DNA from: Candidatus Hermodarchaeota archaeon
Lineage (GTDB): Archaea > Asgardarchaeota > Heimdallarchaeia > Hodarchaeales > Hodarchaeaceae
DNA: 32,000 nt
NCBI GenBank assembly: GCA_048886185.1
Contig: JBHLKY010000006.1
Span: 1-32,000, forward strand
Direction of reading: 5' to 3'
This document shows positions 7,794 through 24,470 of this stretch, piece by piece (position 1 is the first letter of the stretch; every line of letters starts with the position of its first letter). The notes beneath the pieces were generated by a model. It searched no databases. It was not told the origin of the DNA and saw nothing but the letters and a program-made list of their open reading frames with translations. Both the position numbers and the translations under genes were made by a program.

Positions 7794-8957
7794 ATGGTTT
7801 CTGCTCGTCATTTATTTACCTCTGAATCTGTTACCGAAGGTCATCCAGATAAAATGGCTGACCAAATATCGGATGCAATATTAGACGCAATTTTAGAAAA
7901 TGATCCCCATGCCCATGTAGCATGTGAAACATACTTAACCACCGGAATGGCTTTAATTGGCGGAGAAATTTCTACAACGACATATGTTGATATTCAACAG
8001 GTCGTTCGCGATAAAATTAAAGACATAGGCTACACAGACTCGAGAATGGGTTTTGATTACAATTCTGTTGCGGTGTTAAATGCTATCCACGAACAAAGCA
8101 CAGATATTTCGCAAGGTATCGAACGAATCCGTCCAGAAGAACAGGGTGCTGGAGATCAAGGGATGATGTTTGGATATGCCTGCAAAGAAACTGACTCGCT
8201 AATGCCTTTACCAATTGTACTTGCTCACGGATTAACAAAGCAACTAGCCGTAGCACGAAAAAATAATGAGATTACGTGGCTACGTCCTGATGGAAAATCT
8301 CAAGTAACAGTTGATTATAGTAATGGAAAACCAATTAGTGTATCCTCGGTTGTTATTGCTGCACAACATAGTGAAGAGGTCACCCATGGCGAAATTAAAG
8401 AGGAAATCATTTCAAAAGTAATCATGAAAGTAATTCCTAAACAATACTTGACAGATGAAACAGAGTACTTCATTAATGAAACGGGACGCTTTGTCATAGG
8501 GGGTCCACATGGTGATACTGGATTAACGGGTCGTAAGATCATTGTAGACACATATGGTGGTGTTGGTTCACATGGAGGTGGTTGTTTCTCAGGGAAGGAT
8601 CCCTCTAAAGTAGATCGTTCTGGTTCCTATGTCGCACGCTGGGCAGCAAAAAATGTTGTGGCAGCTGGATTAGCGAATGAATGTGAGATTCAAATTGCCT
8701 ATGCTATTGGTGTCGCCAAACCACTGTGTATCAATCTGGACACTAAAGAAACGAACATTATTCCAGAACTAGATATTTTAGATCTTATCAAGCAGCATTT
8801 TGATTTCCGACCAGGTATAGTGATAGAGCGACTTAAGCTTAAACGACCGATCTACGCGAAAACAGCAGCGTATGGTCATTTTGGCCGTGATGATCCTGAT
8901 TTCACATGGGAAAATACGGATATGGCTCAGATTTTACGTGAAGATGCTGGGATATAA
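7794..8957 (+). CDS. metK: S-adenosylmethionine synthetase, bacterial/eukaryotic type
   Basis: 387 aa; [59 protein letters not shown]. Confidence 0.98.
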
Positions 8958-9108: not shown

Positions 9109-10041
9109 ATGAGTAGGAGCACGATGGCACAATTGTTTGCGCGTTTACCCATAAATTTGCGATATGTCTTAAGTGAACTATTAATTAGTGCTTATAACTT
9201 CGATGCTCGAATTCTAAAAGATTATATTGATGGGAAATTTGCCACAACGTTCAATTACTCAAATGAATCAATAGCCAAAATAAAGGCCCTCCATGATCGC
9301 CATAAAGGTGAAAGATGTTTTATTCTTGGCAATGGCCCGAGTTTAAATCGAACTAATCTTACTAATCTAAGAAATGAGGTTTCCATTGCCTCCAGTGGAA
9401 TCTTTCACATCTTTAAAGAAAATTCATATAGACCAACATACTATACAGTTGTAGATTTCATTTTTGCTCAACAATATGCTAGAATTATTGACAAGGTTAT
9501 CAAGAATGACAATATTACAGGGATTTTATTGAATTCCCTAAAAAAGTACATTCAAGGAGATCCTAGTACAATATGGGTGAATTTCTTACCAACATGGATA
9601 CATGGCCATTATTCTCAGTACACACAAGAAAACATGGAAACGAATCGAGAAAAGCCTCTACTACCTGAATTTAGCGAGAACCTTGTCCGTGGAATTCATG
9701 ATGCAGGGACAGTCACTTATGTTAATTTACAATTGGCCCTTTACATGGGTTTTAGTGATATCTATTTGATTGGTGTTGATCATAATTATAAAGTCAAAGA
9801 AACAATCGTTACAGAGAATCCAGACATCCTAATAAGTGATTATGAAGTTGATCCCAATCATTTTAGTCCTAATTACACCCCAAAGGGACATAAAATGGCT
9901 GTACCAAGAGTAACTATAATGGAATCAGCCTATTACAAAGCCCGCAAAGTTGCAGAATCGCGGGGTGTTAATATCTATGACGCAACAAAGGGGGGACAAT
10001 TAAAGGTCTACCGAAAAATAGATTATGATTCGTTATTCTGA
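9109..10041 (+). CDS. DUF115 / Maf / GT42-like protein, candidate nonulosonic-acid transferase
   Basis: 310 aa; RCFILGNGPSL and GTVTYVNLQLALYMGFSDIYLIGVDH are the two family motifs; overlaps the convergent neuA by 9 nt. Confidence 0.75.
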   Translation: MSRSTMAQLFARLPINLRYVLSELLISAYNFDARILKDYIDGKFATTFNYSNESIAKIKALHDRHKGERCFILGNGPSLNRTNLTNLRNEVSIASSGIFHIFKENSYRPTYYTVVDFIFAQQYARIIDKVIKNDNITGILLNSLKKYIQGDPSTIWVNFLPTWIHGHYSQYTQENMETNREKPLLPEFSENLVRGIHDAGTVTYVNLQLALYMGFSDIYLIGVDHNYKVKETIVTENPDILISDYEVDPNHFSPNYTPKGHKMAVPRVTIMESAYYKARKVAESRGVNIYDATKGGQLKVYRKIDYDSLF

Positions 10042-10752
10042 TTTTGATCTCTTTTTCATTAATTTTTCAGCTTCATTTAGCCTCTCTTGGGTATCAATAT
10101 CGATTTTATTTTCAGGAATATTATCCAAAATCAGAGGTAATATCCGATCCCCTGTCATTGATCCCATATTAAGGATAATACATGACCGAACTACATCTAT
10201 GTAGCCTGTTTGCCAATAAACGGGAACTAAAACTTGTCGGGGTTGATTATATGCTTCTTTAATTTTAGTTTTTATTATTGGCTCTAAATACCCTTCATTA
10301 CCGATTTTCCACATTTTGTAGGGGTTTTCATCAGGAGTGACTACAGCTCGAACACTATGAGCGTCAGAATTATCTAGTAGAAGTTTGATGGCTTTGTCAA
10401 CAATGGATGTTTCTCGTAGCGGGCTTGTCGGTCGCAGATGGACAACAATTTCGGGACAATATTCCTCCTTCTCTAATAACCACATCAAAGCGTGAGTAAA
10501 GACAGGTAAATCTGGAGTGAGATCTTGAGAAAATATGCTAGGTCGAATGAAGGGGACCTCTGCTCCGTAATTCTTACTAATTTCTGCAATCTCTTTATCA
10601 TCAGTTGAAACGATTATTCTATTGATCAATTTACTTTCTTGTGCAATTTTAATTGAATAATAGATTAGAGGCTTATTCGATAGGAGTGCTATATTTTTCC
10701 TAGGAAGTTTCTTTGAACCTCCTCGTGCAGGAATCAACGCTAAAATATCCAT
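10033..10752 (-). CDS. neuA: Acylneuraminate (CMP-nonulosonate) cytidylyltransferase, copy 1
   Basis: LIPARGGSKKLPRKN, VSTDD, RPTSPLR, IDIDT; ATG 10752 preferred over the track's TTG 10764. Confidence 0.9.
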   Translation of the reverse strand: MDILALIPARGGSKKLPRKNIALLSNKPLIYYSIKIAQESKLINRIIVSTDDKEIAEISKNYGAEVPFIRPSIFSQDLTPDLPVFTHALMWLLEKEEYCPEIVVHLRPTSPLRETSIVDKAIKLLLDNSDAHSVRAVVTPDENPYKMWKIGNEGYLEPIIKTKIKEAYNQPRQVLVPVYWQTGYIDVVRSCIILNMGSMTGDRILPLILDNIPENKIDIDTQERLNEAEKLMKKRSKSE

Positions 10753-10807
10753 TATAAATCCCAATCAGCTCTCGAGTTTATTGTATCATTGAAATATTTT
10801 GTTTTAA

Positions 10808-11647
10808 TTACCAACAGGTCCAACCACCGTCAACAATGAGATTTGCTCCAGTCATATAGGATGATGCGTTAGATAAGAGAAAAATAATGGCTCCTTGATA
10901 CTCGTTTCTTTCAGCCATTCTTCCCATTGGAACACGATAAGAATAATTCTTGACAAACGTCTCATCGTGACCATCAAAAACGCCACCTGGAGTTAATGTA
11001 TTGACTCGTATTTTATTTTTCGCCCAATATGTTGCTAGATAACGTGTAAAGTTTAAGACCGCACTTTTTGTTGTAGCATATCCAATAGGAGTATTGAAGG
11101 CTGTTTCTCCGTATTGACTTTTAATACCTTGATAGATGCGTTGATCAGGGGAGACAAGTCCATAAGTAGAAGCGATATTAACGATAGAACCTCCATCAGG
11201 ATTCTTTTTCATTTCTATTCCGATTTTTTGTGTTACAATAAACATCCCTGAAATATTAGTATCTATTGCTAATTTCCAAAGTTCTAATGGATAAGTCTCG
11301 AAAGGAGAAAAATATTCTTTTAATTCCTTACTTCCTTTGGCAATCGTTAATGCTGCGTTATTTATCAGCCCATTTATTCTACCAAATTTGTCTAGTGTTT
11401 GATCGACTAGGTTTTCTACGCTTCTTTCTGAGGTGATATCTACCTCGCATGCTAAACCTTCTTTACCTGTTTTATTTTCCAACTCTTTTAAGAATTGATC
11501 AGCTTTGTCTAATCGAATATCTGCAATGACTGGATTTCCCTTAGCTATGGATATGGCTTCTGCATATGATTTTCCCAAAAGCCCCATTCCCCCTGTAATA
11601 ATGATGACTTTATCTTTTAAGCTAAATAACTCTTCAATGGTATGCAT
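10808..11647 (-). CDS. Short-chain dehydrogenase/reductase, PtmA-like
   Basis: 279 aa; TGGMGLLG cofactor motif, NNAA, S-YxxxK (YATTK), RVNTLTPGG, DGGWT; co-oriented between a Gfo/Idh/MocA gene and neuA. Confidence 0.9.
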   Translation of the reverse strand: MHTIEELFSLKDKVIIITGGMGLLGKSYAEAISIAKGNPVIADIRLDKADQFLKELENKTGKEGLACEVDITSERSVENLVDQTLDKFGRINGLINNAALTIAKGSKELKEYFSPFETYPLELWKLAIDTNISGMFIVTQKIGIEMKKNPDGGSIVNIASTYGLVSPDQRIYQGIKSQYGETAFNTPIGYATTKSAVLNFTRYLATYWAKNKIRVNTLTPGGVFDGHDETFVKNYSYRVPMGRMAERNEYQGAIIFLLSNASSYMTGANLIVDGGWTCW

Positions 11648-11660
11648 TTTCCTTCCTTCA

Positions 11661-12626
11661 TTATTTAACAGTTTTTACCTTTAACACAACATTAAGTACT
11701 TCTATCCCATCTTCTATGGTAACCATGGGATTTTCATTGTTTTTAATGCAGCCGAGAAAATGATTAATTTCCTCGATAAACATATCATTTCTTTCAAAGT
11801 TTGTTGGAGTTTTGAAGACTTCTTCCTGCTTTGTTGAACGCTCATAAATCGTTAAAGAATTTTTGTAATAATCCCAAATTATCTTACCTTTCTCTGCAAT
11901 TATTTCAAGAGTTCTGTTAGGAGGTTCTTGTAGGTAATCAAGAAAAATTGATCCTATTATCCCGTTTTCATGTTTAAGGCTCATAATGGAGCACTCATCG
12001 GTAGTGGTATTCAGAACTTTTTTTTCGCTTAATAGGCCTTGTGATTCTTTGACACGACCAAAAAACCATATAACCATATCTATATCGTGACTTAAGGTTA
12101 GAAGGGTGCCTCCTCCTAAATCATCTCTTGCGCTATAGCCTTTTCTATAATCCTCCCATGGATGCCAGCTAGGAAGAAATTCTCCATAAATACTACGATA
12201 ACCTACGACTTCTCCAATTCTATTGTTTTTGAGAATACTTTTGATCTCTTTCAGAAGAGGATGGAATCGCATATTATAACCAACCATAGCAATAATGCCT
12301 TTTTCTTCTACAAGCCTTTGAAGGGTATTTAATCCCTCTAATGAGTTTGATATGGGTTTTTCAATAAATAAATGAGCTGTAGTTTTTTTAAGAACTTTTA
12401 ATGCCAATGGAATATGTAGACTTGTTGGATTGGTCAGAAATATGATGTCTGGTTTTTCATTGAGGGCTTCATCAAGATTAAAATACTCTTTCACGTTATT
12501 TTTTTCGCAGAATTCCTCTTTCTTTAGGCGCGATCTGAAAGCAATAAGATCATGATAACCGAGAAATTTTAAGTTTGTTATGTGTCTTTTTCCTATTGAT
12601 CCAAGTCCAATCATCAAAATTTTCAT
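11661..12626 (-). CDS. Gfo/Idh/MocA oxidoreductase, PtmF-like, copy 1
   Basis: 321 aa; IGLGSIGKRH, EKP, GYNMRFHP, LPSWHPWEDYR, SHDID. Confidence 0.9.
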   Translation of the reverse strand: MKILMIGLGSIGKRHITNLKFLGYHDLIAFRSRLKKEEFCEKNNVKEYFNLDEALNEKPDIIFLTNPTSLHIPLALKVLKKTTAHLFIEKPISNSLEGLNTLQRLVEEKGIIAMVGYNMRFHPLLKEIKSILKNNRIGEVVGYRSIYGEFLPSWHPWEDYRKGYSARDDLGGGTLLTLSHDIDMVIWFFGRVKESQGLLSEKKVLNTTTDECSIMSLKHENGIIGSIFLDYLQEPPNRTLEIIAEKGKIIWDYYKNSLTIYERSTKQEEVFKTPTNFERNDMFIEEINHFLGCIKNNENPMVTIEDGIEVLNVVLKVKTVK

Positions 12627-12932
12627 TCATACACGCTCTAATTAGCTTTTTATCATCCTTTGAGAGTATTATGTCTAGAGATTTGTTAGTTCGATTGCAG
12701 TGTTTTAATCTTGAATCATCCTTTAATATTTCTGGCTATTTTTATTAATACTTTAAAAATGAAATTAATCTTTTGCGTCCTGATTGATTCAACTCCCTCT
12801 TCCATTCTAATTTCCTAAATACGAATAATATAATAAATGATAAGAAAAATACAGCATAATTTATTTACCAAAGGGCTAGACTTTGACTACTGTCTGACGA
12901 AAAGTAATTTTAATTGATGGGTTAAAATCGAA

Positions 12933-13820
12933 GTGCAAGAAATGAAGGAAATAATTATTGGAGATAAACAAATTTCAGAAGAATCACCAGTTTTTTTCAT
13001 CGCAGAAATTGGCATAAACCATAATGGTGAATTAGATCTCGCCAAAAAAATGATTGACATGGCAGTCTATTGTAATGCAGATGCAGTTAAATTTCAAAAA
13101 AGAACGTTAGATCTTTGTATCCCTCCTGAAATGAGAAATCGAATAAAGGAAACACCTTGGGGAGAAATGACCTACTATGAATATAAAGAAAGATTAGAAT
13201 TTGGTGAATCAGAATATAGAGAGATTGATCAATATTGTCAAGAGAAAAAGATTTTATGGTCGGCTTCTGCTTGGGATATACCTAGTTTGACTTTCTTAGA
13301 AAAGATGGGAGTTCCTTATCACAAGATTCCTTCTGCGCAATTAACAAACAGGGAGCTTCTTCTTTCTGCTAAAGAAACTAATAAACCAATATTTTTATCC
13401 ACTGGAATGAGTACTGAAGAAGAAATTAAAAGGGCAATAGAGATCCTAAAGGATACCCCTTTAATAATAATGCACAGTAATTCTGCATATCCTTCGGTGA
13501 ACGGTGATTTAAACCTTTCATATATCCCTAAACTGAAAGAATTATATCCCGAACATATTGTTGGCTATAGTGGGCATGAAGAGGGAATTTCAGCAAGTCT
13601 TGTCGCAGCAACTCTAGGAGCTAAAGTAATCGAAAGACATGTAACAATCAACCGTGCAATGTGGGGTACAGATCAAGCAGCATCAATAGAATTTAGTGGG
13701 CTTCGAAGAATAGTTCGTGATTTGAAGAAGCTTCCAATTTGGCTAGGAAATGGGAAGAAAGTGGTAACACCCTCAGAACTTCCAGTGAAGAAAAGATTAA
13801 GAAATGTTGAAACCCTTTAA
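12933..13820 (+). CDS. neuB: NeuB-family synthase lacking the C-terminal SAF/AFP domain; NANS / KDN-9-phosphate-synthase-like
   Basis: 295 aa; IAEIGINHNG, KFQKR, LSTGMS, GYSGHEEG, IERHVT; ends right after the TIM barrel; start GTG 12933 or ATG 12942. Confidence 0.88.
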   Translation: MQEMKEIIIGDKQISEESPVFFIAEIGINHNGELDLAKKMIDMAVYCNADAVKFQKRTLDLCIPPEMRNRIKETPWGEMTYYEYKERLEFGESEYREIDQYCQEKKILWSASAWDIPSLTFLEKMGVPYHKIPSAQLTNRELLLSAKETNKPIFLSTGMSTEEEIKRAIEILKDTPLIIMHSNSAYPSVNGDLNLSYIPKLKELYPEHIVGYSGHEEGISASLVAATLGAKVIERHVTINRAMWGTDQAASIEFSGLRRIVRDLKKLPIWLGNGKKVVTPSELPVKKRLRNVETL

Positions 13821-13970
13821 AAAATCCTAGAATCACTATTGTCTCTTTGTAAATGTTGCTGTAAAGTTTTGAACTCCACCCTTAATCAAATAATACTAAA
13901 AGCTATCTAATTCAAAGTTTGAAAAGTCATTCTCAAATGATAGAAAATTGCTGAATTTTGACATATACTC

Positions 13971-14498
13971 ATGCAAGGAGATGATGTAGTGAATAACATC
14001 AAGGTGAAGAATATCAAAGCCCTTAAGCAAATTAAAAAAGTGAAAATGGCAATCTTTGATATTGATGGGGTTTTTACTGATGGTAGTGTCTACATTGACT
14101 CAAACGGGAGAGAAATGGTTAAATTTTCACGAATAGATGGAAAAGGAATTGAGCTGTTAATAGAAGCAGGGATTCATGTTGGGATAATTTCATCGGAAGC
14201 TAGCGATGCAGTTAAGTACAGAATGAATAAACTAAACATTTCAGAGGTACATCTGGGTATTAGGAACAAATTAGAGAGTTATAATAGTATAAAAGAGAAA
14301 TTTCAGCTTTCAGATCATGAGATATGCTATTGTGGGGATGATATCCAAGATATCCAAATCTTAACAAGATGTGGATTCTCCTGTTGCCCAAAAAATGCTC
14401 AAAATGAAGTGAAGGATATTTGCGATTATATTTCAGAATATGAAGGAGGAAGCGGATTTGTTAGGGATATATGTAACATTTTATTAAATGCTACATAA
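13971..14498 (+). CDS. KdsC-family (C0 HAD) phosphatase, candidate nonulosonate-9-phosphate phosphatase
   Basis: 175 aa; FDIDGVFTDG (DxD), SRIDGKGI, ISS, CGDDIQD, GGSGFVRD. Confidence 0.88.
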   Translation: MQGDDVVNNIKVKNIKALKQIKKVKMAIFDIDGVFTDGSVYIDSNGREMVKFSRIDGKGIELLIEAGIHVGIISSEASDAVKYRMNKLNISEVHLGIRNKLESYNSIKEKFQLSDHEICYCGDDIQDIQILTRCGFSCCPKNAQNEVKDICDYISEYEGGSGFVRDICNILLNAT

Positions 14499-14656: not shown

Positions 14657-16033
14657 TTGATGAAAATGACCATCAATGTTGCTGTAATTGGTATGGGGTA
14701 TGTTGGGGTCCCCATTGCTGCCTTACTTGCCGATACTGGTGTCTTTAAAGTTACAGGTATACAAAGACGTTCAAAACGGTCAGGATGGAAGATTGATTAT
14801 CTTAATCAAGGCAAATGCCCCATAAAGAATGAACCTGAACTCCCAGAATTAATTTCCAGAGTCGTTAAGGAGAAAAAGTCTTTTTCAGTCACAGATGACA
14901 TTTCTATTGTAAGAAGCATGGATTATATACTAATCGACGTTCAAACACCAACTGATGAACAAAATATCCCCCAATATGTGTCTTTAAAGGAAGTTAGTAA
15001 TCAGGTAGGTCAAAATCTATCAAAAGGAACAACGGTCATCATTGAATCAACTTGTGCTCCAGGGACGACCGATTTCATTGTAAAACCCATCATTGAAGAA
15101 GCTTCATCATTCAAATGTGAAAAAGATTTTTTTCTGGCCTTTGCTTATGAAAGGGTCATGGTTGGCAGGTTGATTTACAATATTTTAAATTATCCCCGAA
15201 TAGTAGGTGGTGTCGGGTCTGAAAGCTCAAAGAAAGCAAGTTGGTTATATAAACATGTTTTGAAAAATGAGGTTGTAGAAACCACAGCACTTACAGCGGA
15301 GCTTGCAAAAGTAGTGGAAAATACTTATCGTGATGTTAATGTTGCCTTTGCAAATGAAGTAGCTTTAATTTGTGAATCGCTAGGAGCAGATGTTTATGAA
15401 GTACGGGATCTTGTAAATAATCTCCCTTTCATCGAGGGAAGGGGAAACCCTCATCGTAATATGCACATACCAGGAGCAGGAGTGGGAGGCCACTGTCTTC
15501 CAAAAGATCCTTGGTTATTAAAATATGGTGTAATGAAACATGGAAAAAAACCAGTTCAGCTTAATGTAATTGAAGCAAGTCGTCTTCGGAATTTTTTCAT
15601 GCCAAAACATGTAGTTGCTCTTCTAAAGGAATGTGAAGCTGAAACTAATCGGTATCATTCTAAAGATCAGAAAATCGCAATTTTAGGGGTCGCTTTTATT
15701 GAAAACTCTGATGATCCTCGGAATACTCCCACACGATATCTAGTAAATATTCTTGAAAAAGAGAATTATACATATGCTGTCCACGATCCCCTTGTGCGCC
15801 AAGATGAGGTAGATTTCCCTTTTTCAACGAATTTGGAGGAAGTTATCCGTGATTCGGATGCATTAATTATTGTAACAGCCCATCAAGAGTATAAAAACTT
15901 AAATCTAACTCATACTAAATCCTTGATGAAAAAAGAACCAATATTAATTGATGGAAGAACAACATTTAATCCTGAAGAAATTATCAACTTAGGTTTTTGT
16001 TATCGAGGAGTGGGCCGTGGTCAATATCGCTGA
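14657..16033 (+). CDS. Nucleotide-sugar dehydrogenase (UDP-ManNAc / UDP-GlcNAc 6-dehydrogenase family, WecC/WbpA-like)
   Basis: 458 aa; GMGYVG, IESTCAPGTT, KVVENTYRDVNVAFANE, catalytic GVGGHCLPKDP, DDPRNTP. Confidence 0.9.
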   Translation: MMKMTINVAVIGMGYVGVPIAALLADTGVFKVTGIQRRSKRSGWKIDYLNQGKCPIKNEPELPELISRVVKEKKSFSVTDDISIVRSMDYILIDVQTPTDEQNIPQYVSLKEVSNQVGQNLSKGTTVIIESTCAPGTTDFIVKPIIEEASSFKCEKDFFLAFAYERVMVGRLIYNILNYPRIVGGVGSESSKKASWLYKHVLKNEVVETTALTAELAKVVENTYRDVNVAFANEVALICESLGADVYEVRDLVNNLPFIEGRGNPHRNMHIPGAGVGGHCLPKDPWLLKYGVMKHGKKPVQLNVIEASRLRNFFMPKHVVALLKECEAETNRYHSKDQKIAILGVAFIENSDDPRNTPTRYLVNILEKENYTYAVHDPLVRQDEVDFPFSTNLEEVIRDSDALIIVTAHQEYKNLNLTHTKSLMKKEPILIDGRTTFNPEEIINLGFCYRGVGRGQYR

Positions 16034-16113: not shown

Positions 16114-18063
16114 GTGGCTGATATAGATACAGTTATTCTTATTTATTCGGATTTTTTAACTAATTTACCTGGGAGCTATTTTGATAAGGGAAATAAAATT
16201 GTTTCATGCTCAATCGAAACCTCATCATTCCTTAAGAAACAGAATATAATGTTTTTCACGTTAAAAGATTATTTTCAAGAAAAGCTTAATTTCTCATATA
16301 TTACTCAAACATGGATAGAAACCTGGGCGTTTTTGTCAAAAGGTAACACATATCCTTTTCTTGATATTTTTAAGAGTGAAAATATAAATTTTTGGTGGTT
16401 TATAGATATAGAACTTTTTTACCGATTACAGAATCATCTTCGTTCTATATCTGAACTTGTCAGAATCATTGAGTACGATTCTCCTAAAAAAATTATTCTT
16501 CTTGACAGTGATAACGAAAGAATTAAGCTTTTTAAACAAATTTGCCTAATAAAAAAAGTACAGCTCGTAGTTAAAACAAATAACCTAAAATTGATGTCTG
16601 AAGATTTATTACAATCATTAAAAAATGTAATTCTAGTTTTTTGGCGCCTTTTGAGAATGAGAAACATTAGAAAATGGTCAATGAAGTATCAAAAAACCTT
16701 AGATCAATATAATATACGTTATTTTAATAATACTTTCAAAAAAGGGATTTTTTTAACTCATCCAATGCATTGGCGCCCTTCTAATGATCCTTCAAAGTAT
16801 GGAAAGAAAGAAAACTACTATTTCAATCAATTATTTGAACAATTCTCTAATTATCAAATTCAACCTATTGAACTGCAAGTTGTAAGAAGAAAAAAGCCAA
16901 ATATACAAGTTATTAAAGAAATGGTTTCTACAGAATATGGTATTCCAATCAAACTTTTGCCTAGTTATAGTACGAAACGAACATATGATAGTAAAACTGT
17001 TATTAAAATTATTGAAAACAGATTAATTGTACAATTTCAGGATACCCAGTTTTTGCAAAGCTTAAATTTCCGAGGAATTCCCTTACATAAATATGTACTG
17101 TTGTATGTTTTAGAGCTACTAAAAAGTAATGTGCCAGTCGTTTTGGAGACTATTGAACAAATTAAAGAAATGATTTCAATAGAGGAGCCCTCTTTCATTT
17201 TTTTGATAAATGAATATTCACTATATGAAAGAGCAACACTTATAGCAGGAAAAATGATGAATACTCCATCTTTTGCAATGCAGCACGGGCTAATCACAGC
17301 AGATTCGCGAGGATATGCTATTAAATCGGATATTGCAAAAGGATTACATTTTAAACTTCCTCCACGCCCAAATAAAACCTTGGTTTATGGTGAATATTTT
17401 GCAAAATTATTAATTAATTATGGTGATTATACTCCTGACCAAATCTTTATTGTGGGAAACCCTACGTGGGATAATTTGCACCAATATAAATCTCATTATG
17501 ATCTCAAGTCAATACGGATGAAATTGAAAATTCCAGAACAACAGAAAGTTATCTTACATGCAACAGAGAATTTACCAGGTGGATTAAACATTGGAGTCAC
17601 AAATTTAATAATAAACACATTTCTTAATATTACTGATGGTAGATATTTCCTCTTAATTAAAGTTCATCCTGGAGAAAAAATTGAATCTTATAAGCATCTT
17701 CTTCCAGATGATAGAAATGATATCTTAATCATTAAAGATGTAGCTCTTGGAGAAGTTCTATCTATATCTGACGTTTTAATAGCGGCCTATTCAACAACAG
17801 TATTTGACGCAGTTATAAGTAATGTTCCAGCAATAACTCTTGCGATCTCGTATGAGTTAATGAATACTTTTTTTTATGATCTAAATGTCTCATTTAAAGC
17901 GGATGAAACAAATCTTGGTCATGTTTTGAAGAATCTCTTAGATGAAAAGATGGATAATTCTTTCCAGAAAATGCGGGTTCAAATCACTGAAGAATTTGCA
18001 GCTGGTTTAGATATGAAATCAATAGACCGAATTATTACTGTTCTGAGAAATGAAAGTAAATAA
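16114..18063 (+). CDS. Large GT-B / capsule-biosynthesis-type protein, candidate nonulosonic-acid transferase
   Basis: 649 aa; MQHG, VYGEY, VGNPTWD, IKVHPGE, YSTTVFDA in the C-terminal half; GTG start; very AT-rich. Confidence 0.6.
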   Translation: MADIDTVILIYSDFLTNLPGSYFDKGNKIVSCSIETSSFLKKQNIMFFTLKDYFQEKLNFSYITQTWIETWAFLSKGNTYPFLDIFKSENINFWWFIDIELFYRLQNHLRSISELVRIIEYDSPKKIILLDSDNERIKLFKQICLIKKVQLVVKTNNLKLMSEDLLQSLKNVILVFWRLLRMRNIRKWSMKYQKTLDQYNIRYFNNTFKKGIFLTHPMHWRPSNDPSKYGKKENYYFNQLFEQFSNYQIQPIELQVVRRKKPNIQVIKEMVSTEYGIPIKLLPSYSTKRTYDSKTVIKIIENRLIVQFQDTQFLQSLNFRGIPLHKYVLLYVLELLKSNVPVVLETIEQIKEMISIEEPSFIFLINEYSLYERATLIAGKMMNTPSFAMQHGLITADSRGYAIKSDIAKGLHFKLPPRPNKTLVYGEYFAKLLINYGDYTPDQIFIVGNPTWDNLHQYKSHYDLKSIRMKLKIPEQQKVILHATENLPGGLNIGVTNLIINTFLNITDGRYFLLIKVHPGEKIESYKHLLPDDRNDILIIKDVALGEVLSISDVLIAAYSTTVFDAVISNVPAITLAISYELMNTFFYDLNVSFKADETNLGHVLKNLLDEKMDNSFQKMRVQITEEFAAGLDMKSIDRIITVLRNESK

Positions 18064-18133: not shown

Positions 18134-19441
18134 TTAATTCACTCGTGCAAAACCAGAATGAGCTACAGGCCCGTCTAATTTGTTTAAAATGTTATGTTGA
18201 TCCAAAGCTTTTCGAATATCTGAGAAAACTTCATTCGCATCTTCCGTATATGCTTCTACAATATCTTTTGTATGTTTATATGCAACATAAACAGAGTCAG
18301 AGGCCAAATATCCCCTTTTTAACATTTCTTGGGTAAAAAATGTCCTCATCGGAAGACTTTGATCGTAATGGTTGAAAGAAAAGTGAGATAATGGAGGGAT
18401 TCCTGTTATCGTAAGATTTAACTTATTTTCATCTGCAAGTATCTTCCAATTATAACGAATTAATTTACCTATTTTAATAAGGTGTGATTGGACTTTTTCT
18501 CTTTGCATCTTCTCAATAGTAGCTATTGAAGCAACTGGACCAATCCGTTCGGTCCAAAAAGTACTGCTGATAAAGCTATTCTGTGCTGCATCCATGACTT
18601 CAGACGTTCCAACAATAGCAGCCATTGGATATCCATTTGAAATTGCTTTACCATAAACAACAATATCAGGAATAACATTATATTGCTTAAAAACTCCTCC
18701 GAGGTTCATTCGCCATCCAGTTGTGATTTCGTCAAAAATAAGAACGGCGTCAATTCGATTAGCGATTTCTCTAATCTTCTGAAGAAAAGAATTTTGTGGT
18801 TCATAGTTTCTCATTGTTTCTAGGACAATGACACCAATGTCATGGCTGTCAACAAGATGCTCAAACTGATCTATTTTGTTATATTTAAAAGGAATTGATG
18901 TCCCTTTTAATCCTCTTGGAACTCCTGCAGGATCTAATCCTGGTAATAAATGGCCGTCCAAGCTCTTTATATCATGTAAATTGGCTGAAAGATACCAGTC
19001 ATGCCATCCATGATATCCACAGAAAGCCACGAAATCTTTTTTAGTGAAAGCACGAGCAATTCGAACTGCTACAGTCATTGCTTCCCCACCTGATCTCACA
19101 AATCTTACCATTCCAGCCCACGGATCTATTTTGAGTAGTAGTTCTGCTAACTCGATTTCTTCAGGACAGTTTAAAGTAGCCATAGATCCTTTATCTATAA
19201 TATTTTTGACTGAGGAGTCAACATCATCATCAGCAAACCCTAGAATGCAAGCACCAATTCCCATTGTTGTCATATCAATATATTTCTTATTATCCAAGTC
19301 CCATACTTCGACCCCTTTTGCCTTTTGGTAGTATGCAGGCCAAAGTTCTGGTAAAAATAATTCAGCTCGCTTAGAAAGTAATTGTGATCCTCCAGGGATA
19401 ATTTTCTTGGCCCTTTTCCATAATTTTTGTCCTGATGACAT
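18134..19441 (-). CDS. Class III PLP aminotransferase (GSA-aminomutase-like, glycan-cluster type)
   Basis: 435 aa; IIPGGSQLLSKR, GYHGWHDW, FDEITTGWR, PLP lysine in YGKAISNGYP. Confidence 0.88.
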   Translation of the reverse strand: MSSGQKLWKRAKKIIPGGSQLLSKRAELFLPELWPAYYQKAKGVEVWDLDNKKYIDMTTMGIGACILGFADDDVDSSVKNIIDKGSMATLNCPEEIELAELLLKIDPWAGMVRFVRSGGEAMTVAVRIARAFTKKDFVAFCGYHGWHDWYLSANLHDIKSLDGHLLPGLDPAGVPRGLKGTSIPFKYNKIDQFEHLVDSHDIGVIVLETMRNYEPQNSFLQKIREIANRIDAVLIFDEITTGWRMNLGGVFKQYNVIPDIVVYGKAISNGYPMAAIVGTSEVMDAAQNSFISSTFWTERIGPVASIATIEKMQREKVQSHLIKIGKLIRYNWKILADENKLNLTITGIPPLSHFSFNHYDQSLPMRTFFTQEMLKRGYLASDSVYVAYKHTKDIVEAYTEDANEVFSDIRKALDQHNILNKLDGPVAHSGFARVN

Positions 19442-23423: not shown

Positions 23424-24470
23424 ATGAAATCTATAAGAATTGGGAAGAAAACTATTGGAGAAGGAAATCCATGTTTCATTATAGCTGAAGCTGGAGTAAA
23501 TCACAATGGTTCTCTTGAATTAGCAAAAAATCTTGTCGATGTAGCAAAGAATGTTGGTGCTGATGCAGTAAAATTTCAAACGTTTAAACCAGAAAGGTTA
23601 GTTACAAGATATGCAAAAAAGGCTGATTACCAAAAAGCTACAACATTAGAGGAATCCCAGCATGAAATGCTTATGAAACTAAAATTGACAGAAAGACAAT
23701 TTAAAGATTTAAAGGACTATACAACAAAAAAAGAGATTATCTTCTTATCTACACCTTTTGATTTAGAAACAGTTGAGTTTCTTGATAAACTTGATATTCC
23801 AGCTTTTAAAATTGGTTCTGGTGATGTAACAAATATTCCTTTATTGGAACATATCGCAAAGAAATTGAAACCAATAATTCTATCAACAGGAATGTCAAAT
23901 TTAGGAGAGATTGAGAATGCTATAGAGACCATTACAAATTGTAATAACGAAAATATAATTCTCCTTCACTGTGTGACCAGCTATCCTACTCCCATTGAAG
24001 CTGCGAATTTAATGGCAATAGGTACATTACGTAAAGCATTTAAGAGATTAGTTGGATTTTCAGATCATACTCTTGGAATTCTTGCACCAATTATCGCTAT
24101 TTCCTTAGGAGCATCAGTTATTGAGAAACATTTCACATTAGATAAAAAATTGAAAGGGCCAGATCATCAAGCATCTTTAGAACCAAATGAATTTGCCGAA
24201 ATGGTCAGGATGATTAGAACAGCAGAGAAAGCATTAGGAGACGGTATAAAGAAATTAGAAGATGTAGAAAAGGAAATAAAGAAGGTAGCTAGGAGAAGTA
24301 TTGTAGCTAGATCAGAAATCTTGCCTGGACAGATAATCTCTGAAGAAAATCTAGATATCAAGAGGCCAGGAATAGGATTGGAACCAAAGCATTTTAATCA
24401 AGTTATAGGAAAAAAAGCAAAACGGAAAATCAGTGAAGATGAATTAATTTCATGGGACCTACTGGAATAA
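23424..24470 (+). CDS. neuB: NeuB-family nonulosonic acid synthase with SAF domain (NeuB/LegI-like)
   Basis: 348 aa; IAEAGVNHNG, KFQTF, KIGSGDVTN, GFSDHTLG, GPDHQASL, C-terminal RRSIVA..KRPGIG SAF domain. Confidence 0.93.
   Translation: MKSIRIGKKTIGEGNPCFIIAEAGVNHNGSLELAKNLVDVAKNVGADAVKFQTFKPERLVTRYAKKADYQKATTLEESQHEMLMKLKLTERQFKDLKDYTTKKEIIFLSTPFDLETVEFLDKLDIPAFKIGSGDVTNIPLLEHIAKKLKPIILSTGMSNLGEIENAIETITNCNNENIILLHCVTSYPTPIEAANLMAIGTLRKAFKRLVGFSDHTLGILAPIIAISLGASVIEKHFTLDKKLKGPDHQASLEPNEFAEMVRMIRTAEKALGDGIKKLEDVEKEIKKVARRSIVARSEILPGQIISEENLDIKRPGIGLEPKHFNQVIGKKAKRKISEDELISWDLLE

Follow-up and report, generated by a model that had tools for sequence, protein, structure and literature searches.

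The window analysed here, a stretch of 32,000 nucleotides from a Candidatus Hermodarchaeota archaeon of the order Hodarchaeales (GenBank assembly GCA_048886185.1, contig JBHLKY010000006.1, positions 1 to 32,000), carries two neighbouring genes which encode a NeuB-family synthase devoid of a SAF domain and a C0-type haloacid dehalogenase (HAD) phosphatase, and which are likely to act together in the synthesis of a sialic-acid-like sugar. A preliminary description of the region had regarded the synthase as similar to animal NANS and to the synthase of 2-keto-3-deoxynononic acid 9-phosphate (Kdn-9-P) from Bacteroides thetaiotaomicron (BT1714), working on a phosphorylated, animal-style route, and had set it against a second NeuB encoded further downstream.

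The open reading frame (ORF) of the synthase was called mechanically on the forward strand at 12933-13820, with a GTG start at 12933 and 295 residues; its probable start is the ATG at 12942, where its homologues begin, yielding a protein of 292 residues identical to the sequence labelled P0003. Translation and a Pfam scan bear out the features first described: the protein contains the motifs KFQKR, WGEMTYYEYKERLEF and GYSGHEEG, matches the NeuB family PF03102 alone (237 bits against a cut-off of 22.1, E = 2.5e-70, residues 40-276) and shows no SAF domain (PF08666) in that scan, the C-terminus following directly on the barrel and lying about 53 residues short of the ends of SAF-bearing relatives in the alignment. 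It scores below both the NeuB/NnaB equivalog model TIGR03569 (234.1 versus a cut-off of 399.65) and the PseI model TIGR03586 (170.1 versus 340.25). The catalytic residues of NeuB, namely the metal-binding His and the Lys and Gln of the KFQ motif, are intact, and the invariant columns of the alignment include Glu22, Lys50, Gln52, Lys128, Ser131, His212, Glu231, His233 and Asp244 (P0003 numbering). The second NeuB, with KFQTF, GFSDHTL and a SAF domain, is above the TIGR03569 cut-off (460.4 bits versus 399.65); its KFQTF, GFSDHT and SAF domain had been noted earlier.

Relatives of the SAF-less synthase number in the thousands. An exhaustive profile-free search returned 1743 cluster representatives at E < 1e-30, and the best 120 relatives, from archaea and bacteria, are 58-85% identical over their full length and nearly all about 292 residues long, the nearest named homologue (71% identity) belonging to a Candidatus Hodarchaeota; the earlier caveat on its wide occurrence among bacteria is correct. 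Twelve of these 120, once aligned, display a mean column identity of 75% and conserve KFQKR, ETPWGxMTYxEYK..EF, GYSGHE and MWGTDQAAS as well as a KLRNxxTL tail at the C-terminus. SAF-less NeuBs are known as an uncharacterised environmental group (PMC8208679). The best solved match to the synthase, PDB entry 6NCS, is a SAF-less NeuB from Leptospira borgpetersenii (E = 7e-44) that carries KFQAY and GYSDHS and has no loop insertion in the alignment; as it differs in motifs and loop and represents another SAF-less lineage, the SAF domain has been lost in more than one NeuB lineage. No solved structure was found within the clade of the window synthase in the PDB comparison, and a search of the ESM Atlas returned generic NeuB clusters only.

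The phosphatase ORF, of 175 residues, begins at 13971, exactly 150 nt past the synthase stop at 13820, as had been noted. Species genomes scanned with the synthase yielded 80 loci whose proteins are 47-55% identical to it; they belong to Streptomyces and further Actinomycetota, to Chloroflexota, Bacteroidota and Ignavibacteriota, and to other groups. Neighbours in these loci were counted by tblastn with the window proteins (within 6 kb for the HAD). A HAD homologue accompanies the synthase in 65 of the 80 loci, nearly always immediately adjacent and on the same strand, and a gene of the CTP_transf_3 family in 69, the commonest order being NeuA-HAD-NeuB. The same partners also occur as single proteins, with fusions of the types HAD-NeuB (P0041 and P0128), NeuB-NeuA (P0129) and NeuA-HAD-NeuB (P0126); the last of these, a metagenomic protein of 683 residues, carries all three pathway steps on one polypeptide. 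NeuA-HAD fusion ORFs with an N-terminal CTP_transf_3 domain and a C-terminal KdsC-like HAD, presumably the architecture of vertebrate CMAS, adjoin SAF-less NeuB genes in Streptomyces (locus L087, Streptomyces bungoensis) and in other Asgard genomes (L105, L106:2458-3633 and L107). The HAD of the window itself matches PDB entry 3ewi, a chain named N-acylneuraminate cytidylyltransferase that we take to be the C-terminal domain of CMAS. Among the sampled Asgard loci, a HAD lies beside the synthase in six of the eight of KFQKR/GYSGHE type and in none of the 11 with a classical NeuB, the neighbours of which are NeuC, LegB and LegC.

The phosphatase scores above the YrbI-family model TIGR01670 (138.2 bits, cut-off 106.95), confirming its earlier assignment, and its catalytic motifs (Asp30, Asp32 and Gly122-Asp123-Asp124...Asp127) are intact. 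Chance accounts for none of these family assignments, those of the two synthases included. The phosphatase was aligned with 13 Bacteroidales proteins above the cut-off of NF058599, the equivalog model of the Kdn-9-P phosphatase BT1713, with ten second-copy HADs of the same Bacteroidales genomes taken as putative KdsC, and with 24 HADs adjoining SAF-less NeuBs. In the window protein, all 13 equivalogs and all 24 linked HADs, the residue at position 76 is Glu, whereas each of the ten putative KdsC proteins has Gly or Ala there; position 87 is Lys in the window protein, in 12 of the 13 equivalogs and in all 24 linked HADs, and variable among the putative KdsC copies. Arg84, present in the window protein and in every equivalog and linked HAD, is near-universal. 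The Glu/Lys pair is also absent from the solved phosphatases acting on the 8-phosphate of 3-deoxy-d-manno-octulosonate (KDO-8-P) in PDB alignments. The genome, which is 96% complete, holds a single YrbI-family HAD and no match to DAHP_synth_1, the family that holds KdsA, so that a classical KDO-8-P role is unlikely for this phosphatase.

The relationship of the synthase to NANS and to BT1714 was assessed by motif comparison and with IQ-TREE, in a quick search of 101 rows and a careful search of 62 rows. BT1714-type synthases were defined as NeuB genes adjoining phosphatases above the NF058599 cut-off, and animal NANS sequences, from Oryzias latipes and Asterias amurensis, were recovered by a search with the NANS-like representative P0233. 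The BT1714-type proteins are 344-384 residues long, bear a SAF domain and GYSDHS (GLSDHT in one), and share 33-39% identity with the window synthase. Both animal proteins also bear PF08666, and overall identity is uninformative, since Oryzias NANS shows 37% identity to the SAF-less synthase and 39% to the classical second NeuB of the window. Oryzias NANS and the window synthase have KFQK, GYSGHE and a loop of the WGxTY type in common. KFQK and GYSGHE, put forward as NANS-type signatures, turned out to be shared by a much wider set of proteins. The α2-β2 loop, to which the use of N-acetylmannosamine 6-phosphate (ManNAc-6-P) by human NanS has been attributed (PMC8208679), follows the pattern xPYxxxNSFGKTYGEHRxxLE in NANS-like and BT1714-like proteins and the variant TPWGEMTYxEYKxxxEF in the SAF-less clade, and is unrelated in classical NeuB/LegI. 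That of the window synthase, TPWGEMTYYEYKERLEF, aligns with the NANS loop (SWGKTYGEHKxxLEF type) as a homologous yet distinct variant. The position of Glu134 in Neisseria meningitidis NeuB is occupied by Gln in the window synthase (Gln133 of P0003, in the Ala-Gln-Leu of PSAQLT, window positions 13338-13346) and by Lys, Ser or Leu in other members of the SAF-less clade, whereas NANS, BT1714-type and classical NeuB proteins have Asp; the lost acidic residue may reflect a substrate contact that changed after loss of the SAF domain.

In the trees the SAF-less clade received supports of 100/100, with the window protein, P0004 and a congener copy grouped at 100/98; the classical NeuB/LegI group and the BT1714-like group were each recovered at 100/100, and eukaryotic NANS grouped with SAF-bearing proteins of the FCB group, Cloacimonetes and Marinimicrobia at 96/90. 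The synthase does not nest among the classical NeuB/LegI enzymes that use nonphosphorylated sugars. Supports along the deep backbone joining the four groups were 13-63, for which reason no rooted clade of KFQKR/GYSGHE proteins is claimed. Orthology to NANS was rejected, since the window synthase has no SAF domain and lies in a separate 100/100 clade, whereas NANS groups with SAF-bearing bacterial proteins; orthology to BT1714 was likewise rejected, given the SAF domain, the GYSDHS motif, the 33-39% identity and the separate 100/100 clade of BT1714-type proteins. When the SAF-less clade was constrained to group with eukaryotic NANS, the cost was 29 log-likelihood units (p = 0.094 in the approximately unbiased test), so that this arrangement is neither favoured nor formally rejected; the SAF-less clade as specific sister of eukaryotic NANS is a more remote reading.

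A pointer to the sugar comes from Streptomyces. Of 61 sampled Streptomyces genomes, 59 have one match each to the window synthase, 47-51% identical and within the SAF-less clade, and in S. bungoensis (G004) this is the single NeuB-family match overall. Streptomyces modules display the order NeuA-HAD-NeuB, with NeuA fused to HAD, and contain neither the short-chain dehydrogenase/reductase (SDR) nor the Gfo/Idh/MocA oxidoreductase found beside the window pair. The teichulosonic-acid wall polymer of Streptomyces contains Kdn. The PhoP-activated genes SCO4873-4882 of S. coelicolor, with NeuA SCO4880 and NeuB SCO4881, are described as the teichulosonic-acid wall-polymer cluster in PMC3479208 and, citing Ostash (2014), in PMC13011467. 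Our clade matches were made with other Streptomyces species, from which we infer that SCO4881 belongs to the same clade. Owing to this link to Kdn and to the BT1713-type signature of the phosphatase, conversion of mannose 6-phosphate to Kdn-9-P is the most likely core reaction.

The conserved synteny (65 of 80 loci), the fusions, the BT1713-type phosphatase signature, the lack of a KdsA-family match in the genome and a loop related to those of NANS and BT1714 make a phosphorylated route the best reading of the locus, and NeuB and HAD probably supply two of the three steps of a CMP-nonulosonate pathway with a phosphorylated intermediate, those of synthase and phosphatase. To this extent the earlier proposal of a functional pair on a 9-phosphate route stands, while its description of the synthase as NANS-like or BT1714-like does not extend to orthology with either. 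The SAF-less NeuB would condense a hexose 6-phosphate, most likely mannose 6-phosphate, and phosphoenolpyruvate (PEP) to Kdn-9-P or a close analogue, from which the HAD would remove the 9-phosphate; the NeuA-like enzyme encoded in the divergent operon (10033-10764) would then form the CMP-sugar, which the Gfo/Idh/MocA and SDR enzymes would probably tailor and which the Maf-like protein might transfer to a surface glycan. The end product would most likely resemble sialic acid, with Kdn or one of its derivatives as the probable identity.

Several observations weigh against this interpretation. No assayed member of the SAF-less clade was found in the literature, and the phosphorylated substrate is deduced from genomic context. 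The phosphatase falls under both equivalog cut-offs, for KdsC (NF007019, 135 versus 208) as well as for BT1713 (NF058599, 132.4 versus 180); among PDB matches it is by overall similarity nearer to KDO-8-P phosphatases, and in the HAD tree its branch is long and only weakly placed (72), outside the KdsC-like clade. As a further caveat, Glu76, Arg84 and Lys87 are presumed to correspond to Glu56, Arg64 and Lys67 of BT1713, reported Kdn-9-P specificity residues, the role of Glu56 and Lys67 being backed here by the conservation pattern. Lacking both the SAF domain and the acidic residue at the Glu134 position, the synthase may differ in chemistry or substrate. The extra oxidoreductases point to tailoring, and the sugar finally made may be something other than plain Kdn.

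The same synteny, fusions and phosphatase signature would fit equally well if the synthase accepted ManNAc-6-P and the pathway led through N-acetylneuraminate 9-phosphate to N-acetylneuraminic acid (Neu5Ac), a truly animal-style phosphorylated pathway, for which a Leptospira synthase-phosphatase fusion offers a precedent (PMC3438082) and the S. coelicolor cluster a putative ManNAc-6-P 2-epimerase, SCO4873. This alternative appears unlikely. No convincing NanE was found in the genome, the best match in the search being partial and reaching 29.6 bits, and the NeuC of the window belongs to a separate Leg-type operon. The wall polymer of Streptomyces, moreover, contains Kdn rather than Neu5Ac, and the N-acetyl group is contacted in N. 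meningitidis NeuB by Arg314. This residue, essential for activity, is contributed by the SAF domain (PMC8208679), which is missing from the window synthase.

A different or pre-modified sugar phosphate, such as an oxidised, epimerised or aminated hexose 6-phosphate or a pentose 5-phosphate giving a Kdo-like octulosonate, would lead instead to an undescribed ulosonic acid; the loss of the acid at the Glu134 position, the variant loop, the overall closeness of the phosphatase to KDO-8-P phosphatases and the recurrence with the module of the two oxidoreductases (Table 1) and, in five of the 80 loci, of a class III aminotransferase are all compatible with such a substrate. We consider it improbable, because the Streptomyces modules keep NeuA-HAD-NeuB without the oxidoreductases, which the core of the module therefore does not need, because the phosphatase has the Glu/Lys pattern of Kdn-9-P phosphatases and not that of KdsC, and because the cytidylyltransferase reaches 150 bits as PseF/NeuA against 53 bits as KdsB; we know of no NeuB-family KDO-8-P synthase. 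Finally, the synthase might use a nonphosphorylated sugar, as classical NeuB does, with the HAD serving another purpose such as housekeeping hydrolysis of sugar phosphates. In favour of this, no assayed member of the clade was found in the literature, the best solved match, Leptospira 6NCS, is itself an uncharacterised SAF-less NeuB, and with a gap of 150 nt the two genes might be transcribed separately. Against it, genes outside a common pathway would hardly be expected to adjoin each other in 65 of 80 loci from different phyla, or to fuse repeatedly; the HAD is absent from all 11 classical Asgard NeuB loci, and it is the only YrbI-family copy in a genome with no KdsA-family match; this last possibility is accordingly very improbable.

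The pair lies within a larger glycan island (Table 1). In Chloroflexota modules a NeuA lies directly upstream of HAD-NeuB, and the NeuA of the divergent operon shows about 50% identity to it, which assigns the Gfo/Idh/MocA-SDR-NeuA operon to the NeuB-HAD pair. The congener G217 has the order SDR-GFO / NeuB-HAD-dehydrogenase, GFO denoting the Gfo/Idh/MocA oxidoreductase. Inspection by eye of the intergenic regions at 12627-12941 and 13821-13970 revealed nothing notable. Other members of the island are a large glycosyltransferase (GT)-B-like protein, a second NeuA and a second Gfo/Idh/MocA protein, a flippase-like protein and a complete legionaminic-type operon.

Table 1. Features of the locus and of the surrounding glycan island in the window.
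Feature	Position	Strand	Predicted role or remark
MptE/Maf-like (DUF115) protein, faint WaaZ (Kdo transferase) match	9109-10041	+	Candidate CMP-ulosonic acid transferase; homologues near module in 3/80 loci
CTP_transf_3 cytidylyltransferase (NeuA/PseF-like)	10033-10764	-	Predicted CMP-nonulosonate synthetase of the pathway
SDR oxidoreductase	10808-11647	-	With module in 31/80 loci; predicted tailoring or epimerisation
Gfo/Idh/MocA oxidoreductase	11661-12626	-	With module in 12/80 loci; syntenic in congener (L104); predicted tailoring
AT-rich divergent intergenic region between Gfo/Idh/MocA-SDR-NeuA operon (-) and NeuB-HAD genes (+)	12627-12941		Presumed promoters
SAF-less NeuB-family synthase	12942-13820	+	Predicted nonulosonate-9-phosphate (Kdn-9-P-like) synthase
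C0-type HAD phosphatase, YrbI/KdsC fold, DxD, GDDxxD and E76/R84/K87	13971-14498	+	Predicted nonulosonate-9-phosphate phosphatase
NDP-sugar dehydrogenase (UDP-ManNAc dehydrogenase-like)	14657-16033	+	Directly downstream; NeuB-HAD-dehydrogenase order kept in congener G217
Class III aminotransferase	18134-19441	-	Possible amination tailoring; tie to window module uncertain
Second, classical NeuB/LegI with SAF domain	23424-24470	+	In NeuC/acetyltransferase/LegC/LegB-like operon; contrast and outgroup, outside the phosphorylated route

Elsewhere, the order class III aminotransferase-SDR-HAD-NeuB was observed at L068, L072, L074, L069 and L101 (Chitinophagales, Ignavibacteria, Chloroherpeton and a Bacteroidales genome), without a HAD match at L069; such aminotransferase-bearing modules suggest an aminated product, and the window holds a homologue of the aminotransferase. 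The ORF at 16114-18063 encodes a protein of 649 residues whose C-terminal part weakly resembles Glyphos_transf, BFO_1060 and GT-B families of surface carbohydrates, while about 430 N-terminal residues are without a match; a relative adjoins a BT1713-type phosphatase at L094. Outside the island's subject matter, the gene at 7794-8957 of the window, which comes after two MetE-like genes in this archaeal genome, encodes an S-adenosylmethionine synthetase that reaches 587 bits against the MetK model TIGR01034, presumably that of the bacterial-type enzyme.

A survey of 201 genomes of the Asgard phylum, counting as orthologues proteins with 44% identity or more, recovered the synthase in about nine, among them two of nine congeners (80% identity in one and 50% in the other). 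The gene is thus an accessory one, rather than a conserved Asgard trait traceable to eukaryotes, and has probably been exchanged horizontally. Its supposed bearing on the origin of eukaryotic sialic acid synthesis is consequently weak, as animal NANS groups with SAF-bearing bacterial proteins, the clade is patchy in Asgard archaea and the nearest relatives of the synthase are a mixture of archaeal and bacterial proteins. Two other Asgard genomes, with loci L109 (G251:C14) and L111 (G284:C184), encode SAF-bearing KFQKR/GYSGHx proteins (GYSGHE in L109, GYSGHD in L111); their loop, which reads RPYESPHSFGRTYGEHR..LEF in L109, is very close to that of animal NANS. Each of the two synthases is followed by a KdsC-fold HAD, and a NeuA precedes that of L109. 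In the tree, neither protein grouped specifically with eukaryotic NANS.

The existence of SAF-less NeuBs, a prokaryotic phosphorylated route in Bacteroides and a proposed one in Leptospira have already been published; what is new is an archaeal member accompanied by a functional prediction. That prediction assigns a concrete function to a very large branch of NeuB proteins, comprising thousands of sequences from soil, sediment and marine bacteria and archaea, nearly all sampled Streptomyces among them, and among prokaryotes the SAF-less branch probably represents the principal way of making Kdn-type sugars. Some Asgard archaea at least are predicted to be able to carry two different nonulosonic acids on their surface, and an archaeal ancestry of eukaryotic sialic acid synthesis is not supported by a gene that is patchy in Asgard and is not the closest relative of NANS. 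More speculatively, and with a rather doubtful standing, the extended module of Gfo/Idh/MocA, SDR, NeuA, HAD, SAF-less NeuB and sometimes a class III aminotransferase, which recurs in this Hodarchaeales archaeon, in Chloroflexota and in Bacteroidota, might produce an undescribed, tailored nonulosonic acid of the Kdn type (an epimer or amino derivative) by the phosphorylated route, in which case the 9-phosphate synthases of the SAF-less clade would constitute a third, biochemically distinct type in addition to NANS and BT1714.

Among known systems, the animal NANS/NANP/CMAS pathway resembles the one proposed here in its predicted course, from a sugar 6-phosphate and PEP through a 9-phosphate and its dephosphorylation to CMP activation, and in the CMAS-like NeuA-HAD fusions adjoining members of the SAF-less clade. 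Animal NANS, unlike the window synthase, has a SAF/AFP domain and sits in a separate clade, NANP belongs to a different HAD subfamily, and no kinase or GNE-type gene was seen near the window pair. In Leptospira interrogans, an animal-like phosphorylated route was deduced from a fusion of NeuB to a phosphatase (Ricaldi et al., 2012, PMC3438082); Leptospira 6NCS departs from the window synthase in its KFQAY and GYSDHS motifs and its lack of a loop insertion. In Bacteroides, an animal-like phosphorylated route has been demonstrated, as cited in PMC6200933 (Wang et al., 2008), and the Kdn pathway of B. thetaiotaomicron resembles the window pair in that a NeuB-family synthase (BT1714) lies beside a C0 HAD of YrbI fold (BT1713) with the same Glu, Arg and Lys positions and has a related α2-β2 loop; BT1714-type synthases, however, have kept the SAF domain, carry GYSDHS rather than GYSGHE and mostly lack KFQKR. 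The synthase of the S. coelicolor cluster, SCO4881, would belong to the same SAF-less clade.

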